Positions 9,961 through 32,628 are shown, numbered from the stretch's first letter. The stretch: DNA of 64,000 nucleotides from Limisphaerales bacterium (GCA_025360325.1 JANYCI010000013.1:13544-77543), one strand, 5' to 3'. Numbers and translations are program-made. Notes: generated by a model from the letters alone, not told the origin.

Positions 9961-10524
9961 ATGATTTTAGAAATTGTAAAATACGGCTCCCCAGTGCTTC
10001 GCAAAAAAGGCGAACGCATCGAAAGTGTCACGCCGGAAATCCGCAAGCTCATCACGGATATGTTCGAGACGATGGAGGAAAACCACGGCGTCGGTCTCGC
10101 GGCGCAGCAAGTGGGCGTGGCGAAATTACTCACGGTGATTGATGTGCGCGCGGTGACGGATCGGCCTTCCACGCTGGAACTCGACGGCGAGCCGGCAGAC
10201 GTGGCGAGCATCATGCCGTTGGTGTTGATCAATCCTGAAGTGACGCCGGTGGGTGAACGGGTGAAGGGCAGCGAGGGCTGCTTGAGTTTCCCGGAAATCT
10301 ACGCGGAGATTTCGCGGCCCGAATCGGTGGATGTGAAAGCGCTCGATGCGAAGGGAAAACCCATTTCATTTCGTTGCGGCGGTTTGCTGGCGCGCGCGGT
10401 GCAGCATGAGACGGATCATTTGAACGGGCTGCTGTTCATTGATCGCATGGAGAAAAAGGTGAAACAGAAATTACAGGCGGAGCTGGATGAATTGCAGGCG
10501 GAGACAAAGGCGGCGAAAAAATAG
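9961..10524 (+). CDS. def: peptide deformylase
   Basis: GVGLAAQQVG, EGCLSFP, QHETDHLNG: the three canonical PDF motifs. Confidence 0.95.
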   Translation: MILEIVKYGSPVLRKKGERIESVTPEIRKLITDMFETMEENHGVGLAAQQVGVAKLLTVIDVRAVTDRPSTLELDGEPADVASIMPLVLINPEVTPVGERVKGSEGCLSFPEIYAEISRPESVDVKALDAKGKPISFRCGGLLARAVQHETDHLNGLLFIDRMEKKVKQKLQAELDELQAETKAAKK

Positions 10525-10527
10525 TCG

Positions 10528-10652
10528 GTGGCGTTTGTCGCGCTGCGACAAACCCGCCGCGTGCAGCGGCGGAACACTTTCATTGTCTCGCGAATCTCCA
10601 AACGAATGGTTGCACCGCTGCACGCGGTGCTAATCGTCGCAGCGCGACGATT
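10528..10652. repeat. composite palindromic element with three nested hairpins
   Basis: H1 is gtttgtcgc-gct-gcgacaaac (10533..10553). A long-range 13-bp pair joins ccgcgtgcagcgg and ccgctgcacgcgg. H3 is atcgtcgc-agc-gcgacgat (10633..10651). H1 and the reverse complement of H3 share the core gtcgcgctgcgac. Confidence 0.7.
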
Positions 10653-10725
10653 TCTACCAAATTTCCATCCAAGTTCCACCGAAGTTCTGCTCGACGATTC
10701 TGCCATTCGCCGCTAATTTCCTGTC

Positions 10726-11967
10726 ATGTCGAATGAATTGCCTCCCGGCGAGCCGCGCAAAAAAATCAACCTCCGTCGTCCCGATGTGATGGAGGCGGTG
10801 CAAGCGCAGGTCTTGTCACATTACCGCAGTGAATTGGTCGAGAACATCCGCGCGAATGGCGGCGTGCTGGCGGCGGGCGATCTGACGGTGAAACTCGCGA
10901 AGGAATTTGGTTTCTGCTACGGCGTCGAACGGGCGATTGACCTGGCTTACGCGGCGCGAAAGTATTTTTCTGAAGTCTCTCCGCACACGCCGATTTATAT
11001 GCTCGGAGAAATTATTCATAACCCCGAAGTGAATGATCAAATTCGCAACATGGGCATTCAGATCATTGCGCACAAGCCGACGGATGAGGAACTGGAGCGG
11101 TTGCAAAAGGGCGATGTGGTAATTATTCCGGCATTCGGCACGGAGGTCGGCACGCGGAAAAAATTGGAATCCATCGGCTGCGAAATGGTGGATACCACCT
11201 GCGGCGACGTGATGAGCGTCTGGAAACGCGTGCGGCAATACTCGAAGGAGAATGTCACGAGCATCATTCACGGCAAGGCGAAGCACGAAGAAACGAAGGC
11301 GACGACCTCGCAGGCGCGGGCTTACGGCAGCGGACATTATCTCGTGGTGTTCAATCTTGGCGAGACGGATTACGTCTGTAATTATATTTTGCACGGCGGC
11401 GACAAGCATGAGTTTTTGAAAAAATTTGAGGGTGCGTATTCCGCCGGGTTCGATCCTGATTTGCATCTGCTCGCGGTGGGCGTGGCGAATCAGACCACGA
11501 TGTTGCGCGGTGAAACGGAAGAAGTTCAAAGACGTTTCAAGACGGCGATGCAAAACAAACACGGCGTGGAAAATGCGGAAAAACATTTCCGGTTTTTCGA
11601 CACCATTTGCGGCGCAACGCAGGATCGGCAGGATGCTTTGGAAAAAATGTTGGCGCAGCCGCCAGACCTTTTGCTCGTCATCGGCGGCTACAATTCTTCC
11701 AACACGTCGCACCTCGCGGAGATGGGCGAGGCGAAGCTGCCGACGTATTTCATCAAGAACGCGGCGAAGATGGAATCGGCAACGCTCATCGTTCACTACA
11801 ACCAGCACATCAAGGCCGAGGAAGAAACGCGCGATTGGCTCCCCGCCGGGAAACTTACCGTGGGCATCACTGCGGGCGCCAGTTGCCCGAACAACTTGAT
11901 CGAGGACACCATTCGCCGGTTGTTCGAGCTGCGCGGGATTTCGGTAGCCGATGTCATTAAAAAATAA
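10726..11967 (+). CDS. ispH: 4-hydroxy-3-methylbut-2-enyl diphosphate reductase (long, cyanobacterial/plant-like form)
   Basis: FGFCYGVERAI, GEIIHNPEVN, DTTCGDV, ANQTTML, DTICGATQDRQ, GGYNSSNTSHL, GITAGASCP. Confidence 0.9.
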   Translation: MSNELPPGEPRKKINLRRPDVMEAVQAQVLSHYRSELVENIRANGGVLAAGDLTVKLAKEFGFCYGVERAIDLAYAARKYFSEVSPHTPIYMLGEIIHNPEVNDQIRNMGIQIIAHKPTDEELERLQKGDVVIIPAFGTEVGTRKKLESIGCEMVDTTCGDVMSVWKRVRQYSKENVTSIIHGKAKHEETKATTSQARAYGSGHYLVVFNLGETDYVCNYILHGGDKHEFLKKFEGAYSAGFDPDLHLLAVGVANQTTMLRGETEEVQRRFKTAMQNKHGVENAEKHFRFFDTICGATQDRQDALEKMLAQPPDLLLVIGGYNSSNTSHLAEMGEAKLPTYFIKNAAKMESATLIVHYNQHIKAEEETRDWLPAGKLTVGITAGASCPNNLIEDTIRRLFELRGISVADVIKK

Positions 11968-12016
11968 AGATTCTTTTCGATTTGACGAATGATTCTTTTT
12001 GCATCATTTTAGGCAC

Positions 12017-12220
12017 ATGAGAATGACAGTGGATATAGACAAAAAAACCTTGGGTGAATTGTTGAAGGTCACTGGCCACTCGAAAAACAGTCCCGCCGTG
12101 GCCTTCGCCGTGCGGGATTTTCTCAACCGGAAAAAAGCAAAAAACTTTGGCCGGATGTTGCGGGAAGGCAAGTTTGATTATCCCGCCACGAACGACGAAA
12201 CCGAAACGCGGGACGTTTGA
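12017..12220 (+). CDS. vapB: type II antitoxin, VapB-like
   Basis: A small ORF (MRMTVDIDKKTLGELLKVTG...) ending 4 nt before the PIN-domain gene, which is the typical VapB arrangement. The start could be 12017 or 12023. Confidence 0.7.
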   Translation: MRMTVDIDKKTLGELLKVTGHSKNSPAVAFAVRDFLNRKKAKNFGRMLREGKFDYPATNDETETRDV

Positions 12221-12224
12221 GATT

Positions 12225-12644
12225 ATGGTGCTGGTAGATTCATCGGTGTGGATCGAGTCGTTGCGGCGCGACGGCAATGTTTACGTCAAGCTCGCGCTGG
12301 AGGCGTTGCTGGAAGAATACGAGGCCGCTTGGTGCGGGCCGGTGAAATTGGAAGTCCTTGGCGGTGCACGCGCGCAAGACCGCAAGGCGCTGGAGGAACA
12401 GTTCAGTTGCATCCCATATTTTCCGATGACGGATGCCGCGTGGGATTCCGCAAAAAATCTGGCGTGGCGGCTGCGCGACAATGGTTGCACAGTGCCGTGG
12501 AATGATATTTTAATCGCCACACTTTCGCGCCAGGCCGAGTGTCGCGTTTACAGCGTGGACAAGCATTTTAACCTCATGTATGAAAGCGGAGCGGGAATTG
12601 TGCTTTACGATCCTGGCTACGGCGGAAAATACAATCCAAATTAA
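12225..12644 (+). CDS. vapC: PIN-domain ribonuclease toxin VapC
   Basis: MVLVDSSVWIE... (N-terminal acidic D) and ...WNDILIATL...VYSVDKHF: the conserved PIN acidic pattern. The ORF-track start at 12147 overlaps vapB and is unlikely. Confidence 0.8.
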   Translation: MVLVDSSVWIESLRRDGNVYVKLALEALLEEYEAAWCGPVKLEVLGGARAQDRKALEEQFSCIPYFPMTDAAWDSAKNLAWRLRDNGCTVPWNDILIATLSRQAECRVYSVDKHFNLMYESGAGIVLYDPGYGGKYNPN

Positions 12645-12648
12645 TTTT

Positions 12649-13809
12649 ATGCCACGCAACCGGGAAGAACTCGAACAAATCGAACGGCAAACCCTCGCGC
12701 CCTTCGCGCAATTCAGCGGCGACACGCGCGGGCGCGAACACGCGGAAGCCCCGCCGGAAATGCGCACGCAGTATCAGCGCGACCGCGACCGCGTGATTCA
12801 TTCACGCGCTTTTCGTCGCCTCGAATACAAGACGCAAGTTTTCCTCAACGGCACGGGCGATCACCTTCGCACGCGGCTCACGCACACGATGGAAGTCGCG
12901 GCGATTTCACGCAACATCGCCAGCGCGCTGCGGCTCAACACCGATCTTGCCGAGACGATTGCGCTCGCACATGACCTCGGCCATTCGCCGTTCGGTCACA
13001 AAGGCGAAACCGTGCTCGCCCAATTGATGAAAGGGCGCGGCGGTTTTGAACACAACCAGCATAGCCTCCGCATCGTGGAATTTTTAGAACAGAAGTATCC
13101 GAATTTTTCCGGCCTCAATCTTTCGTGGGAAGTCCGGGAAGGTCTCGCGAAACATCACACCGCCTACGATCACCCCGGCAAGCGCAAAGATTTTGACGCA
13201 AAAAATTCTTCGCTCGAAGCGCAGATCGCGAATCTCGCGGATGAAATTACTTATTACAGCCACGACCTCGATGACGGCCTCGACTCCGGTTTGCTTGATG
13301 AAAAGGAATTGACCAAAAACATCCGCGTCTGGGCGCACGCGGAAAAATTGGTTCGCAAAGAATACGGCAAGTTGCCCGATGAATCCCGCCGCTACATCAT
13401 CATCCGCACAATCATTGATATGCAGATCAAGGACGTCGTCGAAAACAGCGAGCGGCTCATCGCGAAAGCCAAAGTGCAATCGGCCGATGACGTGCGCCTC
13501 TGTGCGAAGCCACTCGTGCAACACACGCCGGAGCGCAGCAAGCTGAATTTGGAAATGCGGAAGTATCTTTACAAAAATCTGTATTACAACCCGGTCGTCC
13601 ACGAGCCGAATTTGCGAGCGGTGAAATTACTTGGAAAGCTGTTCAATTATTTTCTCACGCACCCGAAAGAAATCGGCGAAAGCTCGCGGCGCCGTTTGAA
13701 GAAAGTCGGTTTGCACCGCACCGTTTGCGATTACATCGCCGGCATGACGGACCGCTATGTGATGCTTGAATGTGAGCGCATCTTCGGGAAAAAATTCGAG
13801 ATCAAGTAA
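12649..13809 (+). CDS. dgt: dGTPase-like HD-domain triphosphohydrolase
   Basis: YQRDRDRVIHSRAFRRLEYKTQVF, RTRLTHTMEV, LAHDLGHSPFGH, ADEITYYSHDLDD. ATG at 12649 lies 4 nt after the vapC stop. Confidence 0.88.
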   Translation: MPRNREELEQIERQTLAPFAQFSGDTRGREHAEAPPEMRTQYQRDRDRVIHSRAFRRLEYKTQVFLNGTGDHLRTRLTHTMEVAAISRNIASALRLNTDLAETIALAHDLGHSPFGHKGETVLAQLMKGRGGFEHNQHSLRIVEFLEQKYPNFSGLNLSWEVREGLAKHHTAYDHPGKRKDFDAKNSSLEAQIANLADEITYYSHDLDDGLDSGLLDEKELTKNIRVWAHAEKLVRKEYGKLPDESRRYIIIRTIIDMQIKDVVENSERLIAKAKVQSADDVRLCAKPLVQHTPERSKLNLEMRKYLYKNLYYNPVVHEPNLRAVKLLGKLFNYFLTHPKEIGESSRRRLKKVGLHRTVCDYIAGMTDRYVMLECERIFGKKFEIK

Positions 13810-14380
13810 GACGATTCCACGCGGCCAGTTCCGCGTGCAATTCCTCCACGGGCAAGCCGACGACATTGCTGAACGAGCCGGAAATTTCCGCGATGATGAG
13901 TTCGCCGTGTTGCTGCACCGCATAAGCCCCGGCCTTGTCGAGCGGATTTATTTTTGAAAGGTAACGGCGGATTTGCGCCGGATTCAAAGGGTGAAAACGC
14001 ACATCTGTGCTCACGGAAAAATTTCTTTCGCGCTGTCCACCCACATGAATCAAGCTCACCCCCGTCACGACTTGATGGATTTTCCCCTGCAACTGCGAAA
14101 GCATTTTCTCTGCGTCGGCGAGGTTGCGCGGCTTGCCAAAAATTTTCCGATCCAAAAAAACCAACGTGTCCGCGCCCAGCACCAGCGCGCCGGGATTTTT
14201 GGCGGCGACGGCGCGGGCTTTGCGGTGCGCGTTGAGCTGGCAAATTTCGTGTGGCGAAAGATGCGCGTGCGCGACTTCGGTGGCATCGCTGGCGACGATC
14301 TGAAATTTGAGCGGGAGCAGACCGAGCAGTTCCGCGCGGCGCGGCGAGGTGGAAGCGAGAATGAGCGGCGGCAGTTTCAT
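13802..14380 (-). CDS. maf: Maf-like nucleoside triphosphate pyrophosphatase
   Basis: LILASTSPRRAELL, GADTLV, KAGAYAVQ. Its 3' end overlaps the dgt-like 3' end by 8 nt (convergent genes). Confidence 0.9.
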   Translation of the reverse strand: MKLPPLILASTSPRRAELLGLLPLKFQIVASDATEVAHAHLSPHEICQLNAHRKARAVAAKNPGALVLGADTLVFLDRKIFGKPRNLADAEKMLSQLQGKIHQVVTGVSLIHVGGQRERNFSVSTDVRFHPLNPAQIRRYLSKINPLDKAGAYAVQQHGELIIAEISGSFSNVVGLPVEELHAELAAWNRLT

Positions 14381-14404
14381 ATTTTTTTAATTTAGCGCAA
14401 ATCG

Positions 14405-15085
14405 TCACACGCCGCTGGCGGGCGGCTGGGTGCGTTGAATGAGCGTGGTTTCCAAATTTCGCCGCAGACTGCGTTCCACCGCATGAGCGATCTCGGCCTC
14501 GGCACGCATGAGCTTGTGCAACGCGTGGCGCTCGAGCGCGAGATAGTGGATTTCGTTTTGAGCCGCAACCGTGGCGGTAGCGGGCTGACCGCTGGCGATG
14601 CTGATTTCACCGATCAAACTTTTGGGGGGACACGTTCCGACGGTCGCACCGTTCACCTGCACTTCAACGGAGCCGGTGTTCAGAAAACACAGGTGCGAAA
14701 CGACTTCGCCCTGCCGCGTCAGTTCGGTGCCCGCCGGGGCGGTGCGCCAATGACCGGTCTTGAGCAGCCGGCGCATCTGGTGAGGTTCGAGCTGGGGGAA
14801 AATCCGCTCATAAAAATCGCGGTCGTCCGGGCTGAAGCGGGCAGTGACGTTGCGATATTTAATGATGAGTATCTGCACGACGTTCACGAGCGTGAAGACG
14901 GTTTCCCAAAAAACCCCGACCGGATCGTGCAGCCACCAAGTGCTGTAAATAAATCCAGCCACGCCCGAAGCAATGGCGAGCAACCGCAGCCAGAGCATAT
15001 TCGTCATCATCATCGAGATGACCAGCAGGATGTATTCAATGTTGCCGACGAGCAGCCGGTTGAGCAGGGCAGAATCAATGTGCAT
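14405..15085 (-). CDS. membrane protein with C-terminal cyclic-nucleotide-binding-like domain
   Basis: The N-terminal ~90 aa are hydrophobic (ILLVISMMMTNMLWLRLLAIASGVAGFIY...). A cNMP-like beta-roll follows (LTRQGEVVSHLCFLNTGSVEV...IGEISI). The start is ATG 15085 or 15139. Confidence 0.65.
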   Translation of the reverse strand: MHIDSALLNRLLVGNIEYILLVISMMMTNMLWLRLLAIASGVAGFIYSTWWLHDPVGVFWETVFTLVNVVQILIIKYRNVTARFSPDDRDFYERIFPQLEPHQMRRLLKTGHWRTAPAGTELTRQGEVVSHLCFLNTGSVEVQVNGATVGTCPPKSLIGEISIASGQPATATVAAQNEIHYLALERHALHKLMRAEAEIAHAVERSLRRNLETTLIQRTQPPASGV

Positions 15086-15202
15086 GGCAGTGGGCAATCT
15101 GCCCGGGAGAAATTCAAACCGCAATCCAACGCTTTGCAATTAAAATCCCGCGCTGGAAAATTGAAGCGTGCGTCCGCGATTTTTTTTTTGCAGATTCACC
15201 CT

Positions 15203-15742
15203 ATGCAGAATGTCCGGCAACTCCAAAACCTTGCGCTCATCGGCTTCATGGGCACAGGCAAAACCTCCGTCGGGCGGCTGGTCGCGGATGTGCTGCATTT
15301 TGAGTTTGTGGACACGGACGAACTCATCGAGGAATACACCGGGCGCAGTATCGCGGACATCTTTGCGAAAGACGGCGAAGCGGCTTTTCGTTTGCTGGAA
15401 AAAAAAGTCGTCGAGGAACTGGCGAATAAAACTCAAACGGTCATTGCCACCGGCGGCGGCCTCCCGACCAATCCCGAAAATCTCGTCCGACTAAAATCCC
15501 ACGCGCTCGTTGTCTGCCTCTGGGCGTCCACGGAAAAAATCTGGGAACGCGTCCGGCACCAGTCGCACCGTCCCCTGCTCCACGATCCCGATCCGCAGAA
15601 AAAAATTCGCGACCTGCTCGCCGCCCGCGAACCTTTCTACCGTCAGGCGGACGTGCTGGTGAATACCGGCCTGCGTTCGCCGCGCGAAGTCGCCCAGCAA
15701 ATCGCCTTGCAGTTCAAGCTCGCCAAGCGCACGCGTCCATGA
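15203..15742 (+). CDS. aroK: shikimate kinase
   Basis: Walker A GFMGTGKTSVGR, DTDELIE, FRLLEKKVV, ATGGG. The ORF-track N-terminal extension to 14435 is antisense to the neighbouring gene. Confidence 0.9.
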   Translation: MQNVRQLQNLALIGFMGTGKTSVGRLVADVLHFEFVDTDELIEEYTGRSIADIFAKDGEAAFRLLEKKVVEELANKTQTVIATGGGLPTNPENLVRLKSHALVVCLWASTEKIWERVRHQSHRPLLHDPDPQKKIRDLLAAREPFYRQADVLVNTGLRSPREVAQQIALQFKLAKRTRP

Positions 15743-16782
15743 AGTCCGCGATCCGCCAGCGCGCGTTGGAACTCGGCTTTGACGTTTGCCGCTTCACCAC
15801 CGCCGCGCCGCCGGCCTCCACCGGAAAATTTCAGGACTGGCTCGCGCAAAAAAAACACGGCGAGATGCAATGGCTCGAACGCAACGCGGAGAAGCGCGTG
15901 GAACCACAGAAAGTTTTGGCGGACTCGAAAAGCGTTATCGTGCTGGCGGCGAGCTACGCGAATTTCAAATTTCAAATTTCAAATTTCAAATCCGCCACCG
16001 GCGTCGTCGCTCGCTACGCGCAATTTTCTGACTATCACAATATCCTCGGCGAAAAATTAAAACTGGTCGCAAAATTCCTCGACGAACTTGCCGGCGCGAA
16101 TTCCCGCTCCCTCTGGTATGTGGACACCGGGCCGATTTTGGAACGGGATCTCGCGCAACGCGCCGGCCTCGGCTTTGCCGGCAAGCACACCAACCTCATT
16201 AGCCGCGAACTCGGCAACTGGTTTTTTCTCGCGGAAATTTTAACCACCTTCGAACTAGCACCGGACGCACCGGAAAAAAATCACTGCGGCCAATGCACGC
16301 GCTGCCTCACCGCCTGTCCGACGAACGCCATCACCGCGCCATTTCAGCTCGATGCGCGCCGCTGTATTTCCTATCTCACGATTGAATTGAAAGGCGCGAT
16401 TCCAGAAGCGTTGCGCCCGCTCATCGGCAACCGCATCTACGGCTGCGACGATTGCCTCGCCGCGTGTCCGTGGAACCGGTTTGCCCGCGAAGGAAAATTG
16501 ATGGCGCCGCACGCACGGAAAGATTTGGCCGCGCCGGATTTAATCGAACTGCTTTCGCTCGACGCCGTGCAGTTCAAATCGCGCTTCGCCAACTCGCCCA
16601 TCTTGCGCACGAAGCGGCGCGGATTTCTGCGCAACGTTTGCGTCGCGCTCGGCAATGTCGGCGACCAGACCGCCCTGCCCGCGTTGCAAAAAGCCGCGAT
16701 TGACCCGGAGCCACTCATCGCCGAACACGCGCGCTGGGCCATAGAACAAATTCAACGCCGCACATTACTATTGCCAGACTAA
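15739..16782 (+). CDS. queG: epoxyqueuosine reductase
   Basis: Two 4Fe-4S motifs, CGQCTRCLTACPTNAI and CDDCLAACPWNRF, plus YVDTGPILERDLAQRAGLGFAGKHTNLI. ATGA overlap with aroK. It contains a heptamer-repeat insertion (NFKFQISNFKS). Confidence 0.9.
   Translation: MKSAIRQRALELGFDVCRFTTAAPPASTGKFQDWLAQKKHGEMQWLERNAEKRVEPQKVLADSKSVIVLAASYANFKFQISNFKSATGVVARYAQFSDYHNILGEKLKLVAKFLDELAGANSRSLWYVDTGPILERDLAQRAGLGFAGKHTNLISRELGNWFFLAEILTTFELAPDAPEKNHCGQCTRCLTACPTNAITAPFQLDARRCISYLTIELKGAIPEALRPLIGNRIYGCDDCLAACPWNRFAREGKLMAPHARKDLAAPDLIELLSLDAVQFKSRFANSPILRTKRRGFLRNVCVALGNVGDQTALPALQKAAIDPEPLIAEHARWAIEQIQRRTLLLPD
15961..15990. repeat. heptanucleotide tandem repeat (aatttca x4) inside queG
   Basis: aatttcaaatttcaaatttcaaatttcaaatcc read directly from the sequence. 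It is translated in-frame as NFKFQISNFKS. Confidence 0.9.
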
Positions 16783-16815
16783 TGCGGGCTGATAATTTTT
16801 ATTCGGATACTTGTT

Positions 16816-19800
16816 ATGAAAACAATCAATCGTTTAGTCATGTTGCTGCTAACGGTGCTGTCTGTGCCCGGCGTTCGCGCGCAAGCACCCGCTTCCCTCC
16901 ATGGCTCAACGCTGTTTCAAACGATCACCAGTGGCGACACCACAGTTTTTGACACTAGCGGCTACACGGTTGTTTTTATCGCCAACGCGGCCAACAGTTA
17001 CAGCCGGGTTGACCTACTTGGAACCCCAAACGCCAACGGCACTTTCACCTATGTTCAGTCGGGAGCGGATGCCGTGCTGACAATCACTGATACTCGCGCC
17101 GGAATTTTTACCGCCGACTACAATTTTAACGATTTGCTTTCAGGCGGATATTTATTCACGCAAGGCCCGTCGGCATTTCAAGACGGGTCGTTTATCATGT
17201 ATGCCGGGCAAGCGCCCGCTTCGCTTGCGGGCAAAACTGTTACTTTAGACATCAGCGATGGCGGCGGCGGGGCCGACGCTTCAGGAACTGAAACCATTTT
17301 ATTTACTAGTTCCGGCTACACGCTAACTGATAACTCTGGCATCCATACCGGAACTTATACTTATTCACTTGCTAATAGAAGCACTGGGAAGGTAACCGTT
17401 AGCAGCAGTAGTGGTAACGGTTTACTTTACCTATCTTTTACAGACTCGGCCAGTGGTGGATTTGCCGCCAGAAAAAGCAACGGCCACTGGCAGATCGGCA
17501 CTATCATCATCCCGGATACAACACCGCCGACCGTTACCTTCACTACGCCTACGCCCAACCAGCAATGGAGCAATGCGATGTTCACTGTGAACGGCAAGGC
17601 CAGCGATGATGTCGGCGTAACTTTCGTAGATGTTTCCTCGGATGGAAATACTTGGATTGATGGAGTGTCGTCAAACAGTTGGGTAAACTGGACGGCGGAT
17701 AATGTGCCGCTGACGCCCGGCACCAATACGATTTATGCGCGGGCGCTTGATGGCAACGGTAATTTCAAGACTAACACGGTGAAAATGATTTACATCTTGA
17801 GCACGCCATTGGCGGTGAGCATGAATGGTAAAGGCACCATCAGTCCGGCCTACAACAACGCGTTACTCCCAATCGGGAAAAACGTCACGCTGACCGCCAC
17901 ACCCGCCGTAGGTTATGCGTTTACGAACTGGACAGACGGCAGCAGTTTCATCATCACCAACAAACCGACGCTGACCTTCTTGATGGCGTCTAACTTATCA
18001 TTTATAGCTAACTTCATAGACATCGCCAAGCCGACCGTGGCGATCACGAACATTCCCGTGAGCGGAAACGTGAGTAATGCGGCGTTCACGGTCAAAGGCA
18101 AGGCGGGAGATAACTTATCAGTATCAAATGTGTTTTATAACTTGAACAACGGCGGTTGGCTCGGTGCGGATTTAGCGAATGGCTTCACTAACTGGTCAGC
18201 TTACTTGACGTTGACACCGGGAACGAACTTGCTCGCCACTTATGCCGTGGATACCACGGGCAACTTATCGCTGACTAATACGGTGAAGTTAGTTTATATC
18301 TTGAGCGCCCAATTGACGGTGAGCATGAATGGTAAAGGGAGTATCGCTCCCGCTTACAACAACGCGTTACTCCAGATCGGCAAGAACTACACGCTGACCG
18401 CCACGCCTGCCGTGGGTTTTGCGTTCACGAACTGGACGGACGGCAGCAGTTTCATCATCACCAACAAACCGACGCTGACCTTCTTGATGGCGTCTAACTT
18501 ATCATTTATAGCTAACTTCATAGACATCGCCAAGCCGACCGTGGCGATCACGAACATTCCCGTGAGCGGGAATGTGAGCAACGCGGCGTTCACGGTCAAA
18601 GGCAAGGCGGGAGATAACTTATCAGTATCAAATGTGTTTTATAACTTGAACAACGGCGGCTGGCTCGGGGTGGATTCAACTAATTACTTCAGCAACTGGT
18701 CAGCTTTACTCGACTTGACGCCGGGAACAAATGTTTTATCCACTTACGCTATAGACACCACGGGCAACTTATCGCTGACTAATACGGTGAAGTTAGTTTA
18801 TATCTTGAGCGCCCAATTGACGGTGAGCACGAATGGCAAAGGCAGCATTGCTCCGGCCTACAACAATGCGTTGTTGCAGATTGGGAAGAACTACACGTTG
18901 ACCGCCACACCCGCTGTCGGTTTTATCTTCACGAACTGGGCGGACGGCAGCGGTTTCATCATCACCAACAAACCGGCGCTGACTTTCTTGATGGCGTCCA
19001 ACCTATCGTTCATCGCGAACTTCGTGGACATCGCCAAGCCGGTTTTGACCGTGACGACGCCGACGGCGGCGACCAGCGCGGGAAATGATTTGTATCTTGC
19101 CAGCGGCAAAGCTTTGGACAATGCGGGCGTGACCAATGTGCTCTATAACTTGAATAGCATGGGCTGGTTCCCAGCGGGTCCTGCTAATAGTTGGACAAAC
19201 TGGACGACTACATTGGGATTGACACCCGGCACCAATTATTTTTCAGCCTATGCCGTGGATAGCAGCGGCAATTTATCTATTACTAATAACACTAAGTTCC
19301 TTTACACCACCGCCCCGGCAAGTTTGAGCGGACTGGCGGCGGCGATCACGCCGGACGACAGTGCAATCGCGCCGTTTGGCGTGGCATTTGGCGCGACAAC
19401 TTTCAGCCAGATAGCGACGGATACGAACAACGTGAACGGCCTAGGAAGCTATACTTATACCAAACAAACACCGAGCAGCGGGCTATTAAAACTGACTTAC
19501 ACCGCGCCACCCACCGCTACGAATGAAGGTTTGCAGACCATCAAGCTCGCATTCACCGCACCGAATATTGCACGCTACACAAATGGATTGGATACGGGCG
19601 GTATCATATTTACCTCTACGCCGACGCTTGTGCTGCCGGCCATCCTGAATCAAACCGTGGTAGCAGTGAACAATAACGGCGATGGTGAAAGCATTGTATT
19701 TACTGCGGGAAATTATATCAGAAGTAATTTGCTTACTCATGTATCAAACACCAACCTTAATTACACATATGCTGCCTACAGCCCACTCGGTGCGCTCTTA

Positions 19801-20238
19801 AAAAATTTAGATAGCAACGGTCAGGATTACACCGTAATCACTTTCGTCGGAACAAACTATGGCACTGCCTATTCAGAGAGTTATGATCGGACAGGCAATT
19901 TCACACAGACTAATCAAAGAGTATTTGGAGTAAAATCGCAGAAGTCTGGTGGCAATGCGCCGATAAATTTGGTTAACCACAGCACACTGGTTATCAACAA
20001 TAACTATCATTTCAAGCTGACTTTCGTGGACTCAACCAACTTTGTCACCACGCATGATGCAGACACTAATGGGATTGGCACATATGACTACACGCGGATT
20101 GGCACAAACTCCGGCAACATAGATTTGAATTATTCCACGTTACCTGGAGCGGCCTCGATTTACTTTCAGTTTGTCTCGCCCAATTTCGCCATTATCACCA
20201 ATAGTGATAACACCCTCGGCGCGGCTATCTGGAAATAA
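16816..20238 (+). CDS. large secreted repeat protein (Ig-like plus InlB-B-repeat-like modules flanked by five copies of an unassigned ~105-aa module)
   Basis: Signal peptide MKTINRLVMLLLTVLSVPGVRA|QAP. The internal period is 168 aa. B-units GKGxIxPAYNNALLxIGKNxTLTATPAVGxxFTNWxDGS resemble divergent InlB B-repeats. It is visibly lower in GC than its flanks. Confidence 0.85.
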   Translation: MKTINRLVMLLLTVLSVPGVRAQAPASLHGSTLFQTITSGDTTVFDTSGYTVVFIANAANSYSRVDLLGTPNANGTFTYVQSGADAVLTITDTRAGIFTADYNFNDLLSGGYLFTQGPSAFQDGSFIMYAGQAPASLAGKTVTLDISDGGGGADASGTETILFTSSGYTLTDNSGIHTGTYTYSLANRSTGKVTVSSSSGNGLLYLSFTDSASGGFAARKSNGHWQIGTIIIPDTTPPTVTFTTPTPNQQWSNAMFTVNGKASDDVGVTFVDVSSDGNTWIDGVSSNSWVNWTADNVPLTPGTNTIYARALDGNGNFKTNTVKMIYILSTPLAVSMNGKGTISPAYNNALLPIGKNVTLTATPAVGYAFTNWTDGSSFIITNKPTLTFLMASNLSFIANFIDIAKPTVAITNIPVSGNVSNAAFTVKGKAGDNLSVSNVFYNLNNGGWLGADLANGFTNWSAYLTLTPGTNLLATYAVDTTGNLSLTNTVKLVYILSAQLTVSMNGKGSIAPAYNNALLQIGKNYTLTATPAVGFAFTNWTDGSSFIITNKPTLTFLMASNLSFIANFIDIAKPTVAITNIPVSGNVSNAAFTVKGKAGDNLSVSNVFYNLNNGGWLGVDSTNYFSNWSALLDLTPGTNVLSTYAIDTTGNLSLTNTVKLVYILSAQLTVSTNGKGSIAPAYNNALLQIGKNYTLTATPAVGFIFTNWADGSGFIITNKPALTFLMASNLSFIANFVDIAKPVLTVTTPTAATSAGNDLYLASGKALDNAGVTNVLYNLNSMGWFPAGPANSWTNWTTTLGLTPGTNYFSAYAVDSSGNLSITNNTKFLYTTAPASLSGLAAAITPDDSAIAPFGVAFGATTFSQIATDTNNVNGLGSYTYTKQTPSSGLLKLTYTAPPTATNEGLQTIKLAFTAPNIARYTNGLDTGGIIFTSTPTLVLPAILNQTVVAVNNNGDGESIVFTAGNYIRSNLLTHVSNTNLNYTYAAYSPLGALLKNLDSNGQDYTVITFVGTNYGTAYSESYDRTGNFTQTNQRVFGVKSQKSGGNAPINLVNHSTLVINNNYHFKLTFVDSTNFVTTHDADTNGIGTYDYTRIGTNSGNIDLNYSTLPGAASIYFQFVSPNFAIITNSDNTLGAAIWK
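17524..19312 (+). repeat. 504-bp coding tandem repeat, ~3.5 units
   Basis: Unit boundaries (aag ccg ... = KP) fall at 18028, 18532 and 19036, each 504 nt apart. The 131-bp tract 17935..18065 is identical to 18439..18569 when compared base by base. Confidence 0.95.
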
Positions 20239-20255
20239 TCTGGCACTGGACAGAC

Positions 20256-21932
20256 TTATTTCAACAAGGCTTCGGCGTGTTTGCGAGCGGCGGTGCTTTG
20301 GCCACCGAGCATCCGCGCGAGTTCGGTGACGCGGTCTTTTTTTCCAAGTAAATGGATTTCCGAAATCGTCCGGCCAGCGGTCACCTGTTTGGTCACGACG
20401 TAATGGGCATCGGCGGGGGCGGCGACTTGCGGGAGATGGGTGATACACAAGACCTGACGTTTCGCCGCAATCTGTTTCATTTTTTCGCCCACCGTGTTCG
20501 CCGTTTCGCCGCCGACATTGGCGTCCACTTCGTCGAAAACCAAAACGGGAATTTCATCCTCGGCGGCCAGCACGGTTTTTAAGGCGAGCATCACCCGCGC
20601 CATTTCACCGGACGAGGCGATGGCGCGGAGCGGCTTGGCTGGCTCGCCGGGATTGGGCGCAAATTGAAATTCAATTTCATCCAGACCTGCCTGCGGAATT
20701 TGAGATTTGAAATTTGAGATTTCAGATTGGGAATTGATCGCCACATCAAACTGGCTTTGCTTGAAGCCAAGATCGTCAAGCTGTTGGGTGACGGCTTTGG
20801 CCAGCGGTGGGATAACTTTTTTGCGCGCAGCGGACAGTTTTTTACCGGCGCTCAAGATTTCGGAATCCAGTTTTGCCAACGCCGCATTGAGCCGCGCCAG
20901 TTCGGCGTCGCGCGATTCGAGCGTTTGTAATTTCGTTTTCGCCTCGTCCCCAAACGCACTGACTTCGGCGAGCGTCGCACCGTATTTGCGTTTGAGGGTT
21001 TGCAGCAAGTTCAATCGCTCTTCCAATTCCGCGAGGCGGGCGGGGTCAACATCTACTTTGTCGGCGTAGTGCGAGACGGCGGACTGGAGTTCGCGCAAGA
21101 TTTCGCTGGCCTGAACGTGCAACTCGACGAGACTTGCCGCGCCAATGTCCACGCGCTGAAGTTCCGCAAGCACGCGCCCGACCGCGCCGGACTGCGTGAG
21201 CAAGGAAGTATCGCTCTCGCTTAAAACATCCAGCGCAGCCTGGCTCAACTGCAACAGCTTGGCGGCGTTGTTGGCGCGATGAAATTCGGTTTCGACGGCT
21301 TCATCTTCGCCGGGTTGCAGCCGCGCGGTAGAAATTTCCTGCACTTGGAAACGCAATCGGTCGAGTTGCTGCGCGTAAGTTTTTTCATCCACGACGAGCG
21401 CGGATTTTTCATTTTCCAGAACGCTGCGGCGACGGACGAGTTCACCAAATTCGCCGCGCATTTTTTCCAGCCCGCCGAACGCATCGAGAATCGCGAGCTG
21501 TTTCGCCGCGTGCAGCAGGGACTGATGATCGTGCGGGCCGTGCATATCCACGAGCCATTCGCCAAGGCTGCCGAGCGTGGCGAGCGTGGTGGGCGAGCCG
21601 TTGATGAACTGGCGATTAGTGCCGGCACTCGTGAACGCGCGCTTGAGCACAAGCTGATTTTCCTCGCAGGGTTCGAGACCGTTTTCTTCGAGAAAACTTT
21701 TCAGCGGTGCCCGAAGTTTTTTCACATCGAACACGGCCTCAACCGAACAACTCTCCTCGCCGCTGCGGATGAGCGTGCGGTCGGCGCGCTCGCCCAAAAC
21801 GAGATTGAGTGCGCCGAGGATGATGGATTTACCCGCGCCGGTTTCGCCGGTGATGACGTTGCAACCGGGCTGAAGTTCCAACGTGAGGTCGCTCACGAGA
21901 GCAAGATTTTTGATACGCAGGGTCGTCAACAT
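20256..21932 (-). CDS. recN: DNA repair protein RecN
   Basis: Walker A GETGAGKSII, SMC-like coiled-coil middle, signature SSGEMARVMLALK, Walker B VLVFDEVDANVGG. It contains a heptamer-repeat insertion (SEISNFKSQIPQ). Confidence 0.93.
   Translation of the reverse strand: MLTTLRIKNLALVSDLTLELQPGCNVITGETGAGKSIILGALNLVLGERADRTLIRSGEESCSVEAVFDVKKLRAPLKSFLEENGLEPCEENQLVLKRAFTSAGTNRQFINGSPTTLATLGSLGEWLVDMHGPHDHQSLLHAAKQLAILDAFGGLEKMRGEFGELVRRRSVLENEKSALVVDEKTYAQQLDRLRFQVQEISTARLQPGEDEAVETEFHRANNAAKLLQLSQAALDVLSESDTSLLTQSGAVGRVLAELQRVDIGAASLVELHVQASEILRELQSAVSHYADKVDVDPARLAELEERLNLLQTLKRKYGATLAEVSAFGDEAKTKLQTLESRDAELARLNAALAKLDSEILSAGKKLSAARKKVIPPLAKAVTQQLDDLGFKQSQFDVAINSQSEISNFKSQIPQAGLDEIEFQFAPNPGEPAKPLRAIASSGEMARVMLALKTVLAAEDEIPVLVFDEVDANVGGETANTVGEKMKQIAAKRQVLCITHLPQVAAPADAHYVVTKQVTAGRTISEIHLLGKKDRVTELARMLGGQSTAARKHAEALLK
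20697..20738. repeat. degenerate heptanucleotide tandem repeat inside recN
   Basis: Plus strand aatttga gatttga aatttga gatttca gattggg aattgat. The minus strand has units tcaaaty, inverted relative to the queG copy. Confidence 0.85.
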
Positions 21933-22101
21933 TTGATTGAACGCAATAAATTTGCGGATTGACGCGGTTTGGGCAAACAGAAAAACAATTTATCGAGAGA
22001 TTTTGGGCCAGTCCATTTTAGCAGGTGGTCGCGCGGCGATACCTTTGCTCGTTCAGCAAAAAGGTTGCGGGCAGGCCCAAAAACTGCAAACGTCGAACAT
22101 T

Positions 22102-22932
22102 ATGAAATTCAAAAATCTATTGGCACTGTTCGCCGCTGCCACGCTTTCGTTAGAGGTGGCGTCCGCGCAGACCAGCACCAACACCACGCTCAATGAGCTG
22201 GTCCGCCAAGTGAGCGCCAAAATCAAAGACGGCAAAACGATCAACAGCGAAGCCGAGTTCGCAACCGAATTAGCGCAGTTTGATTTCCTCATTGCCGCGC
22301 AAAATGGCGCCAAGACCGACGAGGCCGCGCAGATCATTTACATGAAGGCGATGCTCTATCTCCAAGTTTTTGAAAACAATGAAAAAGCCGGGGAGATGAT
22401 GAAAAACCTCAAGGACAATTACGGCGACACCAAATACGGCAAGAGCGCGGGAAAAATCGTGGACAAGATCGCCCAGCGCGGCGAGTCGAAAAAATTACAA
22501 TCGGCGCTGACACCCGGCAAAGAATTCCCCGACTTTGCGGAAAAAGACCTGGACGGCAAGCCGCTCTCCGTGGGTGCGCTCAAAGGCAAAGTGGTGCTCG
22601 TGGATTTTTGGGCGACCTGGTGCGGCCCCTGCCGCGCGGAACTGCCGAACGTCATCGAAGCTTACAAAAAATATCATGCCCAAGGTTTTGAAATCATCGG
22701 CGTGAGCCTTGACTCCGACCGCACCAAGCTCCATGACTTTCTGAAAAAAACCGAGGGCATGACGTGGGCGCAGTATTTTGACGGCGAAGGCTGGAGCAAC
22801 AAGCTCGCGCAAAAATATGGCGTGGAATCCATCCCGTTCACCGTGCTGGTCGGGCCGGACGGAAAAATCATCGGCAAGGATTTGCGCGGCGAGATGCTCG
22901 CCACGGCGGTGGCCAAGGCGCTGGGGAAATAA
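22102..22932 (+). CDS. TlpA/ResA-like thiol:disulfide oxidoreductase (thioredoxin fold), secreted
   Basis: Signal MKFKNLLALFAAATLSLEVASA. Redoxin core GKVVLVDFWATWCGPCRAELP, GFEIIGVSLD, GVESIPFTVLVGPDGKI. Confidence 0.88.
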   Translation: MKFKNLLALFAAATLSLEVASAQTSTNTTLNELVRQVSAKIKDGKTINSEAEFATELAQFDFLIAAQNGAKTDEAAQIIYMKAMLYLQVFENNEKAGEMMKNLKDNYGDTKYGKSAGKIVDKIAQRGESKKLQSALTPGKEFPDFAEKDLDGKPLSVGALKGKVVLVDFWATWCGPCRAELPNVIEAYKKYHAQGFEIIGVSLDSDRTKLHDFLKKTEGMTWAQYFDGEGWSNKLAQKYGVESIPFTVLVGPDGKIIGKDLRGEMLATAVAKALGK

Positions 22933-22952
22933 TCTCCGCAAACGAAAATTTC

Positions 22953-22992
22953 AAAACGGCGGCGGGCAAATTGTCCGCCGCCGTTTTTGTAT
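22953..22992. terminator. bidirectional rho-independent terminator
   Basis: aaaacggcggcgg-gcaaattgt-ccgccgccgtttttgtattttt between convergent stops at 22932 (+) and 23000 (-). A perfect 10-bp GC stem is flanked by an A-run and a T-run. Confidence 0.85.
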
Positions 22993-22999
22993 TTTTCCG

Positions 23000-25477
23000 T
23001 CACGGCACGACTTCGATCTCGTAAAACTTTTGCGGCGCGGGCGGCGCGTTGGAGATGTCCGTGAACGAAGTCGTCAGGCTGTTGGCCGAAATGACGCCGC
23101 TGACCGGCGTGAACGGCTGCATCAGATTTGTCGTGGCCAGCACCAGATAATTTTGCCCCGGCGTGCTGCTCCACACCACTTGCTGCGCGTTGCTCGTCAG
23201 CCCGATGATGACCAGCGGTGGCGCGACGATGACCGTCCGCGCATCGGACAACACCGCGACGTTGTTGCTGAAAACAATTTGTAGAACATTGGTGCCGGGC
23301 GTCGTCACCGCCCAGTTGTAAAGCAGCGAACGAAAACCAGAACAGCCCGCGATCGCGCCAACGGGCCGCAAAATGTAATTAGCAGACGGCTGCAATATTC
23401 CATTGATCGTGAGTTGGAACAACGAGGCCGTGTTCGTGGTGAGCGTGGAGGTGAAACACACTTGCACGAGATAGGTGACGTTGTTGGAAATCACCGCGCC
23501 ATCAGCAGCGGGGCTGGAAAATAGCACGAGCGGAGGCGCAGCAGCGGTGCGAAACAGCAATGAATACGGCGCGTAAAGTGTTTTTCCCGAAGCGGTGGCG
23601 AAGGCAGAATTGCTCACGGTGATGGTGATGTTCGTCGCCGCCGCGAAGCCGCCGACGGCGGGCGTGAACGTCATCACATCGCGCGCAGGCGACCAACTGA
23701 ACGTGCCACTGACGGACGGCACGGCGCGGAACGCGGACTGCACGCTGTTGGTATTCATCGGCTGGCTGAATTGTAATACCACAGGCAGCAGCGGCGAAAT
23801 GTTCGTCGCGCTGTGCATCGGAAAATTGGTGACGACGACGGGATCAAGCGGGAGCAGTTGCGTTTGCGCGAGAAAAATTTTTGCGGTCATGGCCGGCACG
23901 GAAATGAGCGGTGTCTGCGGCCCGGCGAGGACAGAAATTATTTCGTTCGGGTTCAGCAAATTCACCAGCGCGGTGCCGGGCGCATAAATCGTCGGGCGGC
24001 TGGCGAGTGTTTGCGCGTTGCTCGCAGTGTTGAAGACGACAAAAACTTCCTGCGTGCCGAGCCGCCGCGAGTAGGCAAACAGACCAGCGGCGCTGGAATT
24101 GTTCCACTGGTTGACGTGTGAGCCGAGCGAGAGAGCGGGATAGAGGCGACGGAAATTATTCAACTTGGCGATCTGTAAAAAAAGCGGATGCGTCATATTA
24201 AAACTGTCCACGCCAGACTGACCGGCATCTTTGAACTGCCCGGCAAACATATCCTCGCGATTATTCGGATCGGTGCCGCCGTTGAACGCCTGCTCGGTTC
24301 CTTGATAGACGCAGGGAATGCCGCGCGAGGTGTGCAGGAACGTGAGCGCGATGGTGAGTTTGTTCGTGTCGCCATTGGCGTTGGCGGAATTAAGGAAACG
24401 CGTCGTGTCGTGATTGTCGAGAAAGGTGACGAGTTGGTTGAGCGTGGCGGCATCGTAGTTCGCGGCAAGGTTATTGAAATGATCTTCGATCTGTTTCGTG
24501 TTACCACCCCGCTCGAAAACATTTTGCGCGGCGAAGAAGAGCGGGTAGTCGAGCAACGAATCCAGCTTGAACGCGCCGCCGCCATTCGTGCCGGAATAGC
24601 TGCCGACTTTTGTATCCGAGCCGTCGAACACTTCACCGAACATGAAAAAATTCGGCTTGCCGTTAGTCGCGGCGGCGCTGTGGATGCGCGGACACCAGTC
24701 TTGCCAGAAACCCATTTCGGCGTGCTTCACCGTGTCCACGCGGAAGGCGTCGAAGCCCGCGTTCGTGATCCAATAATTATAGACCGCCGCTAGGTTCGTG
24801 CGGACGTAAGCGGACTCGGTGCGAAAATCATCAAGGCCGCTCAATTCGCCAAGCTCCAACTGTTGCGTGCTGCTGTAATCAATGATTGCGCCGAAGTTGT
24901 GAAAAAAATTCGTGAGCGATGGATTCAATGCGTTAGTGTTGAACGGCGCGGCGTATTTTTTGGACGAGTTCGCGTAAGTCAAATTGTAGCCGTTCGTGGT
25001 GAACGCGGTGTTACCATCAATGTTGTTGAGCGTGCTACCGTGATTCACCACCACGTCTTGAATGACGAGCAAACCCTTGGCGTGCGCGGCGTTCACCATC
25101 ACTTGCAGATTCGAGAGCGTGCCCCAGTGCGGATCTACGGAATAAAAATCCGCGCCGGAGTAGCCGTGGTATTCGCCGCTGCCGTTTTTGACGATGGGCG
25201 AACTCCAGATGGCAGTGAAGCCTAGTGCCTTGATGTAATCCAATTTCTGTTCGATGCCGCGAAAGTCGCCGCCGTGAACACTCGCGCCGTTGGCGGCATT
25301 GTAGGAACCAGAGGCGTTGTTGTTCGCGGCGTCGCCGTCAAAAAAACGGTCGGTAAAAATCTGGTAGATGCTTTGGGTCTGCCAGAATGTGTTGGGCGCG
25401 GATTGCGACCACCCCCGCAACGCCAGCAGTAAAAGCAGCAGCACGAGCGCGGAAAGTATTTTCGGAGGCACTTCCAA
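23000..25477 (-). CDS. GH13 alpha-amylase-family enzyme with C-terminal Ig-like domains and the shared C-terminal tail
   Basis: GH13 regions DVVVNHGS, FDAFRVDTVKH, FMFGEVFDG, FLDNHDTTRF. The signal peptide is leucine-rich. The start is TTG 25477 or in-frame GTG 25471. Confidence 0.9.
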   Translation of the reverse strand: MEVPPKILSALVLLLLLLALRGWSQSAPNTFWQTQSIYQIFTDRFFDGDAANNNASGSYNAANGASVHGGDFRGIEQKLDYIKALGFTAIWSSPIVKNGSGEYHGYSGADFYSVDPHWGTLSNLQVMVNAAHAKGLLVIQDVVVNHGSTLNNIDGNTAFTTNGYNLTYANSSKKYAAPFNTNALNPSLTNFFHNFGAIIDYSSTQQLELGELSGLDDFRTESAYVRTNLAAVYNYWITNAGFDAFRVDTVKHAEMGFWQDWCPRIHSAAATNGKPNFFMFGEVFDGSDTKVGSYSGTNGGGAFKLDSLLDYPLFFAAQNVFERGGNTKQIEDHFNNLAANYDAATLNQLVTFLDNHDTTRFLNSANANGDTNKLTIALTFLHTSRGIPCVYQGTEQAFNGGTDPNNREDMFAGQFKDAGQSGVDSFNMTHPLFLQIAKLNNFRRLYPALSLGSHVNQWNNSSAAGLFAYSRRLGTQEVFVVFNTASNAQTLASRPTIYAPGTALVNLLNPNEIISVLAGPQTPLISVPAMTAKIFLAQTQLLPLDPVVVTNFPMHSATNISPLLPVVLQFSQPMNTNSVQSAFRAVPSVSGTFSWSPARDVMTFTPAVGGFAAATNITITVSNSAFATASGKTLYAPYSLLFRTAAAPPLVLFSSPAADGAVISNNVTYLVQVCFTSTLTTNTASLFQLTINGILQPSANYILRPVGAIAGCSGFRSLLYNWAVTTPGTNVLQIVFSNNVAVLSDARTVIVAPPLVIIGLTSNAQQVVWSSTPGQNYLVLATTNLMQPFTPVSGVISANSLTTSFTDISNAPPAPQKFYEIEVVP

Positions 25478-32092: not shown

Positions 32093-32095
32093 AGT

Positions 32096-32485: not shown

Positions 32486-32553
32486 GATTGAAACAGTAAA
32501 ACTGAAATCCGTCGGACGGGAAGAAAATTAACCAACTGGGAAAATAATAAAAA

Positions 32554-32628
32554 TGGTGCGCGCTGCAGGTTTCGAACCTGCGACCCCTACCGTGTGAAGG
32601 TAATGCTCTACCACTGAGCTAAGCACGC
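32554..32628 (-). tRNA. tRNA-Val (anticodon CAC), CCA encoded
   Basis: Reverse complement GCGTGCTTAGCTCAGTGGTAGAGCATTACCTTCACACGGTAGGGGTCGCAGGTTCGAAACCTGCAGCGCGCACCA. I folded the cloverleaf by hand: 7-bp acceptor, D GCTC/GAGC, anticodon stem TTACC/GGTAG with loop TTCACAC, T-arm GCAGG-TTCGAAA-CCTGC. Confidence 0.95.

Follow-up and report, generated by a model that had tools for sequence, protein, structure and literature searches.

Fibrillar adhesin-like proteins were defined by Monzon et al. (2021; PMC8286594) with regard to a tandem-repeat stalk, a known anchor, an adhesive region that is usually terminal and a cell-surface location, and about half of these proteins carry no known anchor (PMC8286594). 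Stalk domains of the kind treated below belong to families exemplified by OmpL47 of Leptospira (Big_7/OmpL47) and by the B-repeat of Listeria InlB (Flg_new_2), and a small adhesin barrel is known from Treponema pallidum Tp0751 (pallilysin, PDB 5jk2), a non-canonical lipocalin-fold adhesin (PMC5040251). Here we analyzed a 64,000-nucleotide (nt) stretch of DNA from a Limisphaerales bacterium (GCA_025360325.1, JANYCI010000013.1:13544-77543), referred to as the window, in which a plus-strand gene at 16816..20238 encodes a secreted modular repeat protein. With a probability of roughly 0.6, we read it as a native-lineage, fibrillar-adhesin-like stalk protein capped by small barrels, which has been inherited vertically and is not a recent island. 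Judged by its homologs, the gene belongs to a large paralogous family of Limisphaerales (Verrucomicrobiota), and its product is predicted to be all-beta and rich in Thr, Asn and Ser. The gene and its segments are as follows (amino acids, aa; hidden Markov model, HMM; AlphaFold2, AF2; predicted local distance difference test, pLDDT).

16816..20238, plus strand: intact open reading frame (ORF) of the secreted modular repeat protein, 1140 aa plus stop (ORF call)
16816..16878, plus strand: Sec-type signal peptide, aa 1-21, predicted cleavage VRA/QAP (translation inspected by eye)
16879..17205, plus strand: barrel module N1, aa 22-130 (module HMM, domain E 1.4e-17; in-register alignment)
17206..17514, plus strand: barrel module N2, aa 131-233 (AF2 pLDDT 96.4, 8 strands)
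17515..18018, plus strand: stalk unit 1, aa 234-401, Big_7/OmpL47-type Ig-like domain plus Flg_new_2 (PF17957, PF18998, NF047446, self-comparison)
18019..18522, plus strand: stalk unit 2, aa 402-569 (Pfam/NCBIfam, self-comparison, 504-nt period)
18523..19026, plus strand: stalk unit 3, aa 570-737 (Pfam/NCBIfam, self-comparison, 504-nt period)
19027..19305, plus strand: half stalk unit 4, aa 738-830, Ig-like domain only (self-comparison)
19306..19629, plus strand: barrel module C1, aa 831-938 (module HMM, E 4.9e-23; AF2 cassette model, strands 13-107)
19630..19950, plus strand: barrel module C2, aa 939-1045 (module HMM, E 1.4e-19; AF2 cassette model)
19951..20235, plus strand: barrel module C3, aa 1046-1140 (module HMM, E 1.1e-21)

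A preliminary description of the window, made from the sequence alone, had proposed a signal peptide, two copies of a module of about 105 aa, three and a half repeats of an Ig-like domain A plus an InlB-B-like domain B, and three more modules. Pfam, NCBIfam, self-comparison and profiles all agree with this layout. Two details needed correction: the protein had been called giant, and at 1140 aa it is large rather than giant; the motif GSYTYTK, assigned to the second C-terminal copy, lies in the first, the second having LNYTYAAY. By inspection, the N-terminus (MKTINRLVMLLLTVLSVPGVRA followed by QAP) is signal-peptide-like, and the translation shows no lipobox Cys there. N1 and N2 both begin with QAPASL.G, C3 ends in the family-typical ...SPNFAIITNSDNTLGAAIWK, and such C-terminal ends are conserved among homologs. 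Together, the terminal modules make up 46% of the protein. Between them, windowed self-comparison revealed a stalk period of 168 aa, or 504 nt in DNA, so that 3.5 units span aa 234-830; the half unit shares 35-59% identity with the Ig-like domains of units 1-3 and 76% with unit 4 of the ortholog described below. All stalk domains scored above their cut-offs: Flg_new_2 (PF18998, a divergent InlB B-repeat) with E 2.1e-29 and 101.7 bits against a Pfam gathering cut-off of 23.6, in three stretches; Big_7 (PF17957) with E 8.5e-8 and 33.2 bits against 24.1; and the OmpL47-type barrel (NF047446) with E 5.1e-12 and 46.1 bits against 40, again in three stretches. An NCBI protein (P0001, 1132 aa) is near-identical to the product (100% identity, 99% query cover), its annotated start lying 8 codons downstream of that of the window ORF. 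We rejected a pseudogene or non-coding stretch, as the ORF is intact in two species and the ratio of nonsynonymous to synonymous divergence (dN/dS) from the ortholog is 0.16. Promoter and terminator scans gave nothing above shuffled background.

Compared in pairs, the five terminal segments are only weakly similar (E ~3e-4 for N1 against N2, ~1e-6 for C1 against C3). Nevertheless, jackhmmer searches seeded with N2, C2 or C3 converged on the same five in-register modules and on the corresponding modules of homologs, and never recruited the stalk. An alignment of 29 modules displays the motifs AP..L.G, F, G.YTY, G.L and l.F...G.y. Even with E values up to 10 allowed, no module drew a Pfam match; in 40 family members the module was covered by no Pfam or NCBIfam model, and no PDB chain matched it in sequence; the earlier statement that the module fits no named family therefore withstood the HMM search. 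When 1.84 billion cluster representatives were searched exhaustively with the profile, 795 proteins scored E ≤ 1e-3, of which 293 reached E ≤ 1e-10; as a rule each carries 2-6 module copies. Word-indexed searches with the N- and C-terminal regions yielded only 4 and 6 matches, against the 795 of the exhaustive profile, and no relative turned up when metagenomes were scanned with the N-terminal head. Module-bearing proteins are named "hypothetical protein" at source or carry generic repeat-protein labels, and a literature search returned nothing on this protein family. These profile results indicate that the module forms a genuine, moderately large family without a Pfam or NCBIfam model.

Structure prediction with the module alignment modeled N2 as eight consecutive beta-strands at pLDDT 96.4, and DSSP assigned no helix to the model. 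We therefore predict with high confidence that the module is a small 8-stranded up-and-down, lipocalin-like beta-barrel. The leading Foldseek matches of the N2 model in the PDB are all 8-stranded up-and-down barrels: the best is Tp0751 (E 5.5e-3, template modeling (TM) score 0.59), and others include leukotriene-binding salivary lipocalins, designed 8-stranded barrels (TM 0.6-0.69), NHBA, hemophilin and HpuA. The C1-C3 cassette was modeled with pLDDT 87.8 and a predicted TM score of 0.82 as three sets of 8 strands in a defined arrangement. Searched against the PDB, this cassette found no global counterpart, the matches to sliding clamps (TM < 0.2) and TbpB (TM ≤ 0.30) being spurious. Lipocalins carry a conserved N-terminal motif and a C-terminal helix packed on the barrel. 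The 8-stranded antiparallel up-and-down barrel of the lipocalin/calycin fold is present here in the predicted structure only, and we did not file the module as a lipocalin, given the lack of any Pfam lipocalin match at E ≤ 10 or PDB sequence match, the absence of a helix in the model and Foldseek E values of 5.5e-3 or above.

Such fold matches raise the possibility that the product is instead a secreted or periplasmic ligand-capture protein, whose barrels would bind small molecules or a protein-bound nutrient, like those of TbpB, HpuA and hemophilin, and whose stalk would serve as a spacer. Single modules do match leukotriene-bound lipocalins, hemophilin, HpuA and NHBA, and the cassette weakly matches TbpB; small secreted proteins consisting of modules alone exist (209-367 aa); and Pfam and NCBIfam yielded no surface anchor. 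The matches are weak, however (E ≥ 5e-3; TM ≤ 0.6 for natural proteins and ≤ 0.30 for the cassette), the conserved residues (AP..L, F, G.YTY, G.L, l.F) suggest a structural role more than the lining of a pocket, and the modules are mostly C-terminal appendages of long stalk proteins. On balance, ligand capture seems unlikely to us.

The wider family bears on how the barrel-capped stalk protein may work. A full-length search returned hundreds of Limisphaerales/Verrucomicrobia proteins with the same stalk and alternating domain pair, and all named homologs come from this group. Barrel modules occur in 60 of the 120 best full-length matches, mostly as 2-4 C-terminal copies, and a module forms the protein end in 147 of 201 module proteins. 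The complete layout of N-terminal modules, stalk and 3-4 C-terminal modules is repeated in at least 10 of the proteins examined. According to precomputed Pfam annotation, the matches of the full-length search overall, with or without modules, comprise proteins with varied N-terminal parts (subtilase, cyclophilin, leucine-rich repeat, NHL), and the three-barrel cassette with its conserved end ...APNFAxFTNxDxTxGxAxxK recurs behind differing N-terminal parts. The module-only proteins, too, open with a signal peptide followed by AQAPAS. The protein would be exported via Sec and act outside the cytoplasm as a fibrillar-adhesin-like rod; the adhesin-like character proposed at the outset is supported by its architecture, a tandem Ig-like/InlB-B-type stalk with terminal modules. 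The three-barrel cassette might be a common cell-proximal or partner-binding end, because it recurs at the extreme C-terminus of many members with differing N-terminal parts. The N-terminal pair might be a specificity-determining, ligand-binding tip, because these two barrels are the most divergent segments.

A bolder idea, which we hold to be rather improbable, is that the barrel module, and the C-terminal cassette in particular, is a new envelope attachment or sorting device of Limisphaerales/Verrucomicrobiota. This element is common to hundreds of secreted proteins with differing N-terminal parts. Its role would be analogous to that of S-layer homology (SLH) triplets or the C-terminal domains of type IX secretion (T9SS) cargo. 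If true, it would explain why the stalk proteins lack a known anchor.

A paralog, P0071 (L089 3415-6777), is encoded in a second assembly of the same organism (GCA_043762705.1), a contig of which is 99.96% identical to window positions 19761-24932. It has 1120 aa with 2 N-terminal and 4 C-terminal barrel modules, and its gene lies 15 nt behind rpoD, with a convergent gene 2 nt away on the other side. The gene of the window is similarly packed between queG (33 nt) and recN (17 nt), and family members seem to sit directly behind housekeeping genes. We also noted that downstream of both P0044 (L086) and P0013 (L087) come a CarboxypepD_reg protein, CtaA and CtaB (UbiA family), in that order, with COX1 and COX3 next in the P0013 locus, and that the module-only P0129 (L082) lies near COX2, COX3 and COX1. 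This proximity of family members to haem-copper oxidase genes, together with the cbb3-type oxidase that usually neighbors queG, may be coincidence.

The question of origin turns on the neighborhood of the gene, which is as follows.

15739..16782, plus strand: queG (epoxyqueuosine reductase), upstream neighbor (TIGR00276, E 5.5e-119)
20256..21932, minus strand: recN, convergent downstream neighbor (TIGR00634, E 1.1e-146)
15961..15992, plus strand: heptamer array (AATTTCA)x4.5 in queG, encoding NFKFQISNFKS (repeat scan)
20697..20728, minus strand: heptamer array (AATCTGA/AATCTCA/AATTTCA...) in recN, encoding SEISNFKSQI (repeat scan)

The placement between queG and recN, noted from the beginning, is confirmed by the ORF call and both TIGR models. 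queG is the last gene of a conserved maf(-)/aroK/queG block and is separated from the repeat-protein gene by a 33-nt spacer; the stop codons of the latter and of recN are 17 nt apart. We surveyed the queG side in 80 species representatives, 8 of whose gene-less members have less than 1.3 kb of downstream sequence, and the recN side in 80 metagenomic loci whose RecN is 75-89% identical and of which 56 extend 1 kb or more downstream. The maf(-)-aroK-queG block is kept in 80/80 species representatives. Only one of them (JANYFN010000243.1) has the gene downstream of queG; it is missing in the other 79. The exception is the closest relative by IspH (93-94%), HD (88-90%), Maf (83-84%) and AroK (84-86%), and its protein P0002 is a collinear, full-length ortholog, 68% identical, encoded directly after queG. 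After P0002 come rmlA and related genes rather than recN. Elsewhere, a convergent cbb3-type oxidase operon follows queG in about half of the loci (41-44 of 80), and assorted unrelated genes follow in the others.

No recN occurs within 10 kb of queG among the 80 queG-side species, and neither queG nor any part of the gene stands next to recN in the 80 metagenomic loci. The two genes were therefore not ancestrally adjacent, and a queG-recN junction lacking the gene, which had been proposed as a check on acquisition, was seen in neither survey. Absences on short contigs call for caution, since the gene is evidently hard to assemble: in the second assembly of the organism the contig (L085, JAYUML010000461.1, equal to window 19761-24932) breaks 477 nt into the C-terminal coding part. 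In the sampled genomes, the queG 3' flank is a recurrent synteny breakpoint. The gene would have reached it before the split of the two closest genomes, and recN would have been brought in by another rearrangement, on the 3' side of the gene. Presence in the closest relative and absence from 79 more distant species point to a gain at roughly the genus level, not a recent one.

In another species (L078), a different 2258-aa ORF (10091-16867, +91..+6867 from the queG end) with a signal-peptide-like N-terminus and no barrel modules occupies this flank, where variable genes seem to have landed repeatedly.

The suggestion that the gene was horizontally acquired thus stands in a weak form, as an old, within-order gain at a breakpoint; as a recent import it fails, the ortholog being at the same site and no integrase having been found among the genes scanned. 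The preliminary description had itself named as contrary evidence a relative with the same gene in the same place and of the same composition. The closest relative has the gene there, at a GC (guanine plus cytosine) content that is unremarkable for its own genome (0.524 vs 0.529 for the locus).

The two heptamer arrays constitute a 31-nt inverted repeat whose arms are 87% complementary and stand 4706 nt apart. They had been described as inverted satellites at 15961 and 20697 bracketing 4.7 kb, and as a sequence feature they are real: the heptamer pattern has 9 matches in the 64 kb against 1.3 expected, 8 of them at the queG and recN sites. One could read from them that the gene is a recent 4.7-kb genomic island mobilised or delimited by these arrays, the only two clear ones in the window. 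Such an island would also be in line with the lowest GC and the most deviant tetranucleotides of the window, and with the missing gene at queG in 79/80 species and at recN in 80 loci. The arms, however, lie inside reading frames, ~820 nt (queG) and ~440 nt (recN) from the 3' ends, so that any element they delimit would need to include pieces of queG and recN. Arrays and cargo do not co-occur either. L011 has (AATTTCA)x3 in the same queG loop, followed by the cbb3 oxidase operon, without the gene; L092 and L094 have the identical SEISNFKSQIPQ insert in recN, also without the gene; and in L001, the relative bearing the ortholog, the queG insert is a different one. By chance alone, two arrays in 64 kb would fall within 4.7 kb of each other in ~15% of random placements. 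The deviating composition that marks islands is indeed present (GC 0.499 vs 0.562, GC3 at third codon positions, tetranucleotides), but it is mosaic within the gene and common to a paralog in the same genome. The other marks of an island were not found. There is no tRNA near the gene (the only one of the window is at 32554), no integrase or transposase among the genes scanned, the flanking ones being housekeeping genes, no flanking direct repeats, and no tblastn match to plasmids or phages; nor is the site empty in the closest relative. We regard the recent island as largely refuted and highly improbable, and the native-lineage stalk protein remains the preferred reading.

The arrays themselves have a more local setting. 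Each is in frame and lies inside a hypervariable loop of QueG or RecN, and these loops carry such inserts in relatives that do not have the gene, so that the bracketing is coincidental. The QueG loop, between Y73 and G88, measures 36-132 nt across ~80 Limisphaerales-like species and is often exactly 42 nt long. In 66 of 81 queG genes (80 loci plus the window) the strongest self-match of loop DNA is at lag 7, with a mean of 0.57 vs 0.22-0.30 at other lags. The heptamers vary by species (AATTTCA, AAGCGGA, CCGAACT, CATCTGC, GATTCAC and others), and longer loops consist of two inverted heptamer arrays. The RecN loop (aa ~398-416, L091-L170) occurs as a short AAAEPSS form, as a heptamer-type form with SEISNFKSQIPQ (L092, L094) or EFQIANFKSQIPQ (L096), and as a long insert that resembles a translated inverted repeat (VGDEVTSLKSK...SQSLLTSAPT); across loci it is not dominated by period 7. 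On these patterns, the heptamer arrays are unrelated to the gene and do not mark its boundaries. An in-frame period-7 satellite at a fixed site of a housekeeping gene is unusual, and a literature search found nothing on heptamer repeats in verrucomicrobial coding sequences.

The low GC that first drew attention to the gene is genuine (49.9% vs 56.2% for the window) and the lowest of any 3.4-kb stretch in it. Two 60-nt lines quoted in the preliminary description at 43% and 47% recompute to 43.3% and 46.7%; the ~60% given there for neighboring housekeeping genes is a slight overstatement (57.9% for queG, 57.0% for recN). The 1-kb bins spanning 17001-20000 have GC of 0.512, 0.502 and 0.490. The pair at 18001-20000 are the two lowest of 64 bins, and the bin at 17001-18000 is fourth, after 32001-33000 (0.508). 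Tetranucleotide usage is the most deviant of any 3.4-kb stretch of the window (L1 distance 0.355 vs a median of 0.197).

All this might be merely a by-product of a composition rich in Thr, Asn, Ser and Ile, uninformative on origin or evolution. GC at first codon positions (GC1) is 0.415 vs a mean of 0.594 in other genes, as follows from a Thr- and Asn-rich, almost Glu-free protein (Thr 13.7%, Asn 10.3%, Glu 0.4%); the ortholog has a similar GC1 (0.417), and stalk units have normal GC3. With the synonymous usage of 29 other genes pooled as a reference, we calculated the GC and GC3 to be expected from the amino acids of the protein. These were 0.543 and 0.708, and the observed values 0.500 and 0.604, so that amino acids explain roughly a third of the GC deficit and the remainder is due to synonymous usage. 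The GC3 residual (observed minus expected) is -0.105, outside the range of the 29 other genes (standard deviation 0.043, minimum -0.089). By contrast, two other large proteins of the window with a passenger-associated transport repeat (PATR; 45741-49448, 1235 aa, and 56218-60855, 1545 aa) have GC of 0.57-0.60, GC3 of 0.69 and 0.735 and moderately deviant tetranucleotides. The composition-only explanation is thus partly refuted, and as a full account of the low GC it seems improbable.

Within the gene the deviation is uneven. GC3 is host-like in stalk units 2 and 3 (0.69-0.71) and falls to 0.476 in N2 and 0.421 in C2, which has the lowest GC (0.424) as well as the lowest GC3 of the gene. The ortholog is not deviant in its own genome, with a GC3 of 0.658, and the paralog P0071 is (GC 0.485, GC3 0.527 vs 0.548 and 0.633 for rpoD). 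The low GC would then be due partly to amino acids and mostly to AT-rich synonymous codons, a trait common to the same-genome paralog. The case shows that low GC and a patchy distribution alone do not imply recent horizontal transfer.

The claim that the gene evolves fast held up, both in its divergence from the ortholog (dN 0.234 vs 0.031-0.134 in five neighboring genes) and in repeat homogenisation. The fastest segments are N2 (dN 0.417), C3 (0.37) and C2 (0.34). Stalk units 2 and 3 are 90% identical in aa and 87% in nt to each other, and 79-80% identical to the orthologous units; because they are closer to each other and their mismatches are patchy, gene conversion is indicated. From C1 onward, the ortholog P0002 (69, 60 and 52% identical at C1, C2 and C3) is no longer the nearest relative, that rank passing to P0042 at C1 (82%), P0044 at C2 (71%) and P0121 at C3 (74%). 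The change falls together with the loss of synteny and with C2-C3, where synonymous divergence is saturated. This pattern suggests that C-terminal modules were exchanged within the family. As a history of the stalk protein, we envisage that the gene was placed downstream of queG, at the breakpoint, in the common ancestor with the closest sampled relative and was inherited vertically thereafter. It would have diverged faster than its neighbors under relaxed purifying selection, with gene conversion between repeat units, and its C-terminal modules were probably exchanged with other family members.

Several points weigh against this account. Synonymous codon usage is the most deviant among the long genes of the window (distance 0.31 vs 0.14-0.20), and deviant usage would also fit an origin in a lower-GC relative. 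The dS of 1.43 against the ortholog resembles that of the neighbors (0.93-1.40) but is near saturation, so the similarity is weak evidence for co-divergence. The mosaic C-terminus could reflect unsampled orthologs and unequal rates, as the nearest matches are metagenomic fragments of uncertain genome relationship. No known surface anchor or outer-membrane secretion signal was found in Pfam and NCBIfam scans or in the translation. The C-terminus (...LGAAIWK) has no LPXTG motif or PEP-CTERM-like tail, and there is no autotransporter barrel or Pfam anchor domain. The Foldseek matches, none of which reaches E ≤ 1e-3, indicate for the modeled barrel a fold class and not homology or ligand. Localisation and function are read from sequence and models, and the assignment of a C-terminal anchor and an N-terminal tip is a guess, since modules also occur at N-termini and in module-only small proteins.

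The gene is of an ordinary kind: it encodes a secreted repeat protein that is specific to its lineage and diverges fast. What is new, in a modest way, is an unnamed lipocalin-like barrel family of ~100 aa, with ~800 cluster representatives, that caps many Limisphaerales stalk proteins. The Limisphaerales are an abundant, almost uncultured order of soil and freshwater, and a definition of the module would improve the annotation of their genomes and offer a way into the question of how large extracellular proteins are displayed or retained by Verrucomicrobiota.

Among described systems, Tp0751 resembles the module in having a small antiparallel barrel of 8 strands and in being associated with a bacterial envelope; it is only 14% identical, with no sequence relationship, and is a single-barrel lipoprotein rather than a tandem module in a stalk protein. 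The Gram-negative surface lipoproteins TbpB, HpuA, NHBA and hemophilin share the fold class, as barrels of extracytoplasmic binding proteins, but the matches are weak (TM 0.3-0.5), and these proteins are lipidated and pair their barrel with a handle domain, whereas the present protein has tandem barrels and no lipobox. Arrays of Big_7/OmpL47 and Flg_new_2 domains account for the stalk, where all cut-offs are exceeded, but cover the stalk only and are silent on the terminal modules. The fibrillar adhesin-like proteins differ in that no recognised adhesive domain or anchor is found here, the terminal regions being occupied at both ends by the same undescribed barrel module, which matches no known adhesive domain. 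As to a surface location, the sequence shows a Sec-type signal peptide only. Like them, the protein is a single long chain with a signal peptide, a tandem Ig-like stalk and distinct terminal domains, and it evolves quickly, with homogenised repeats.

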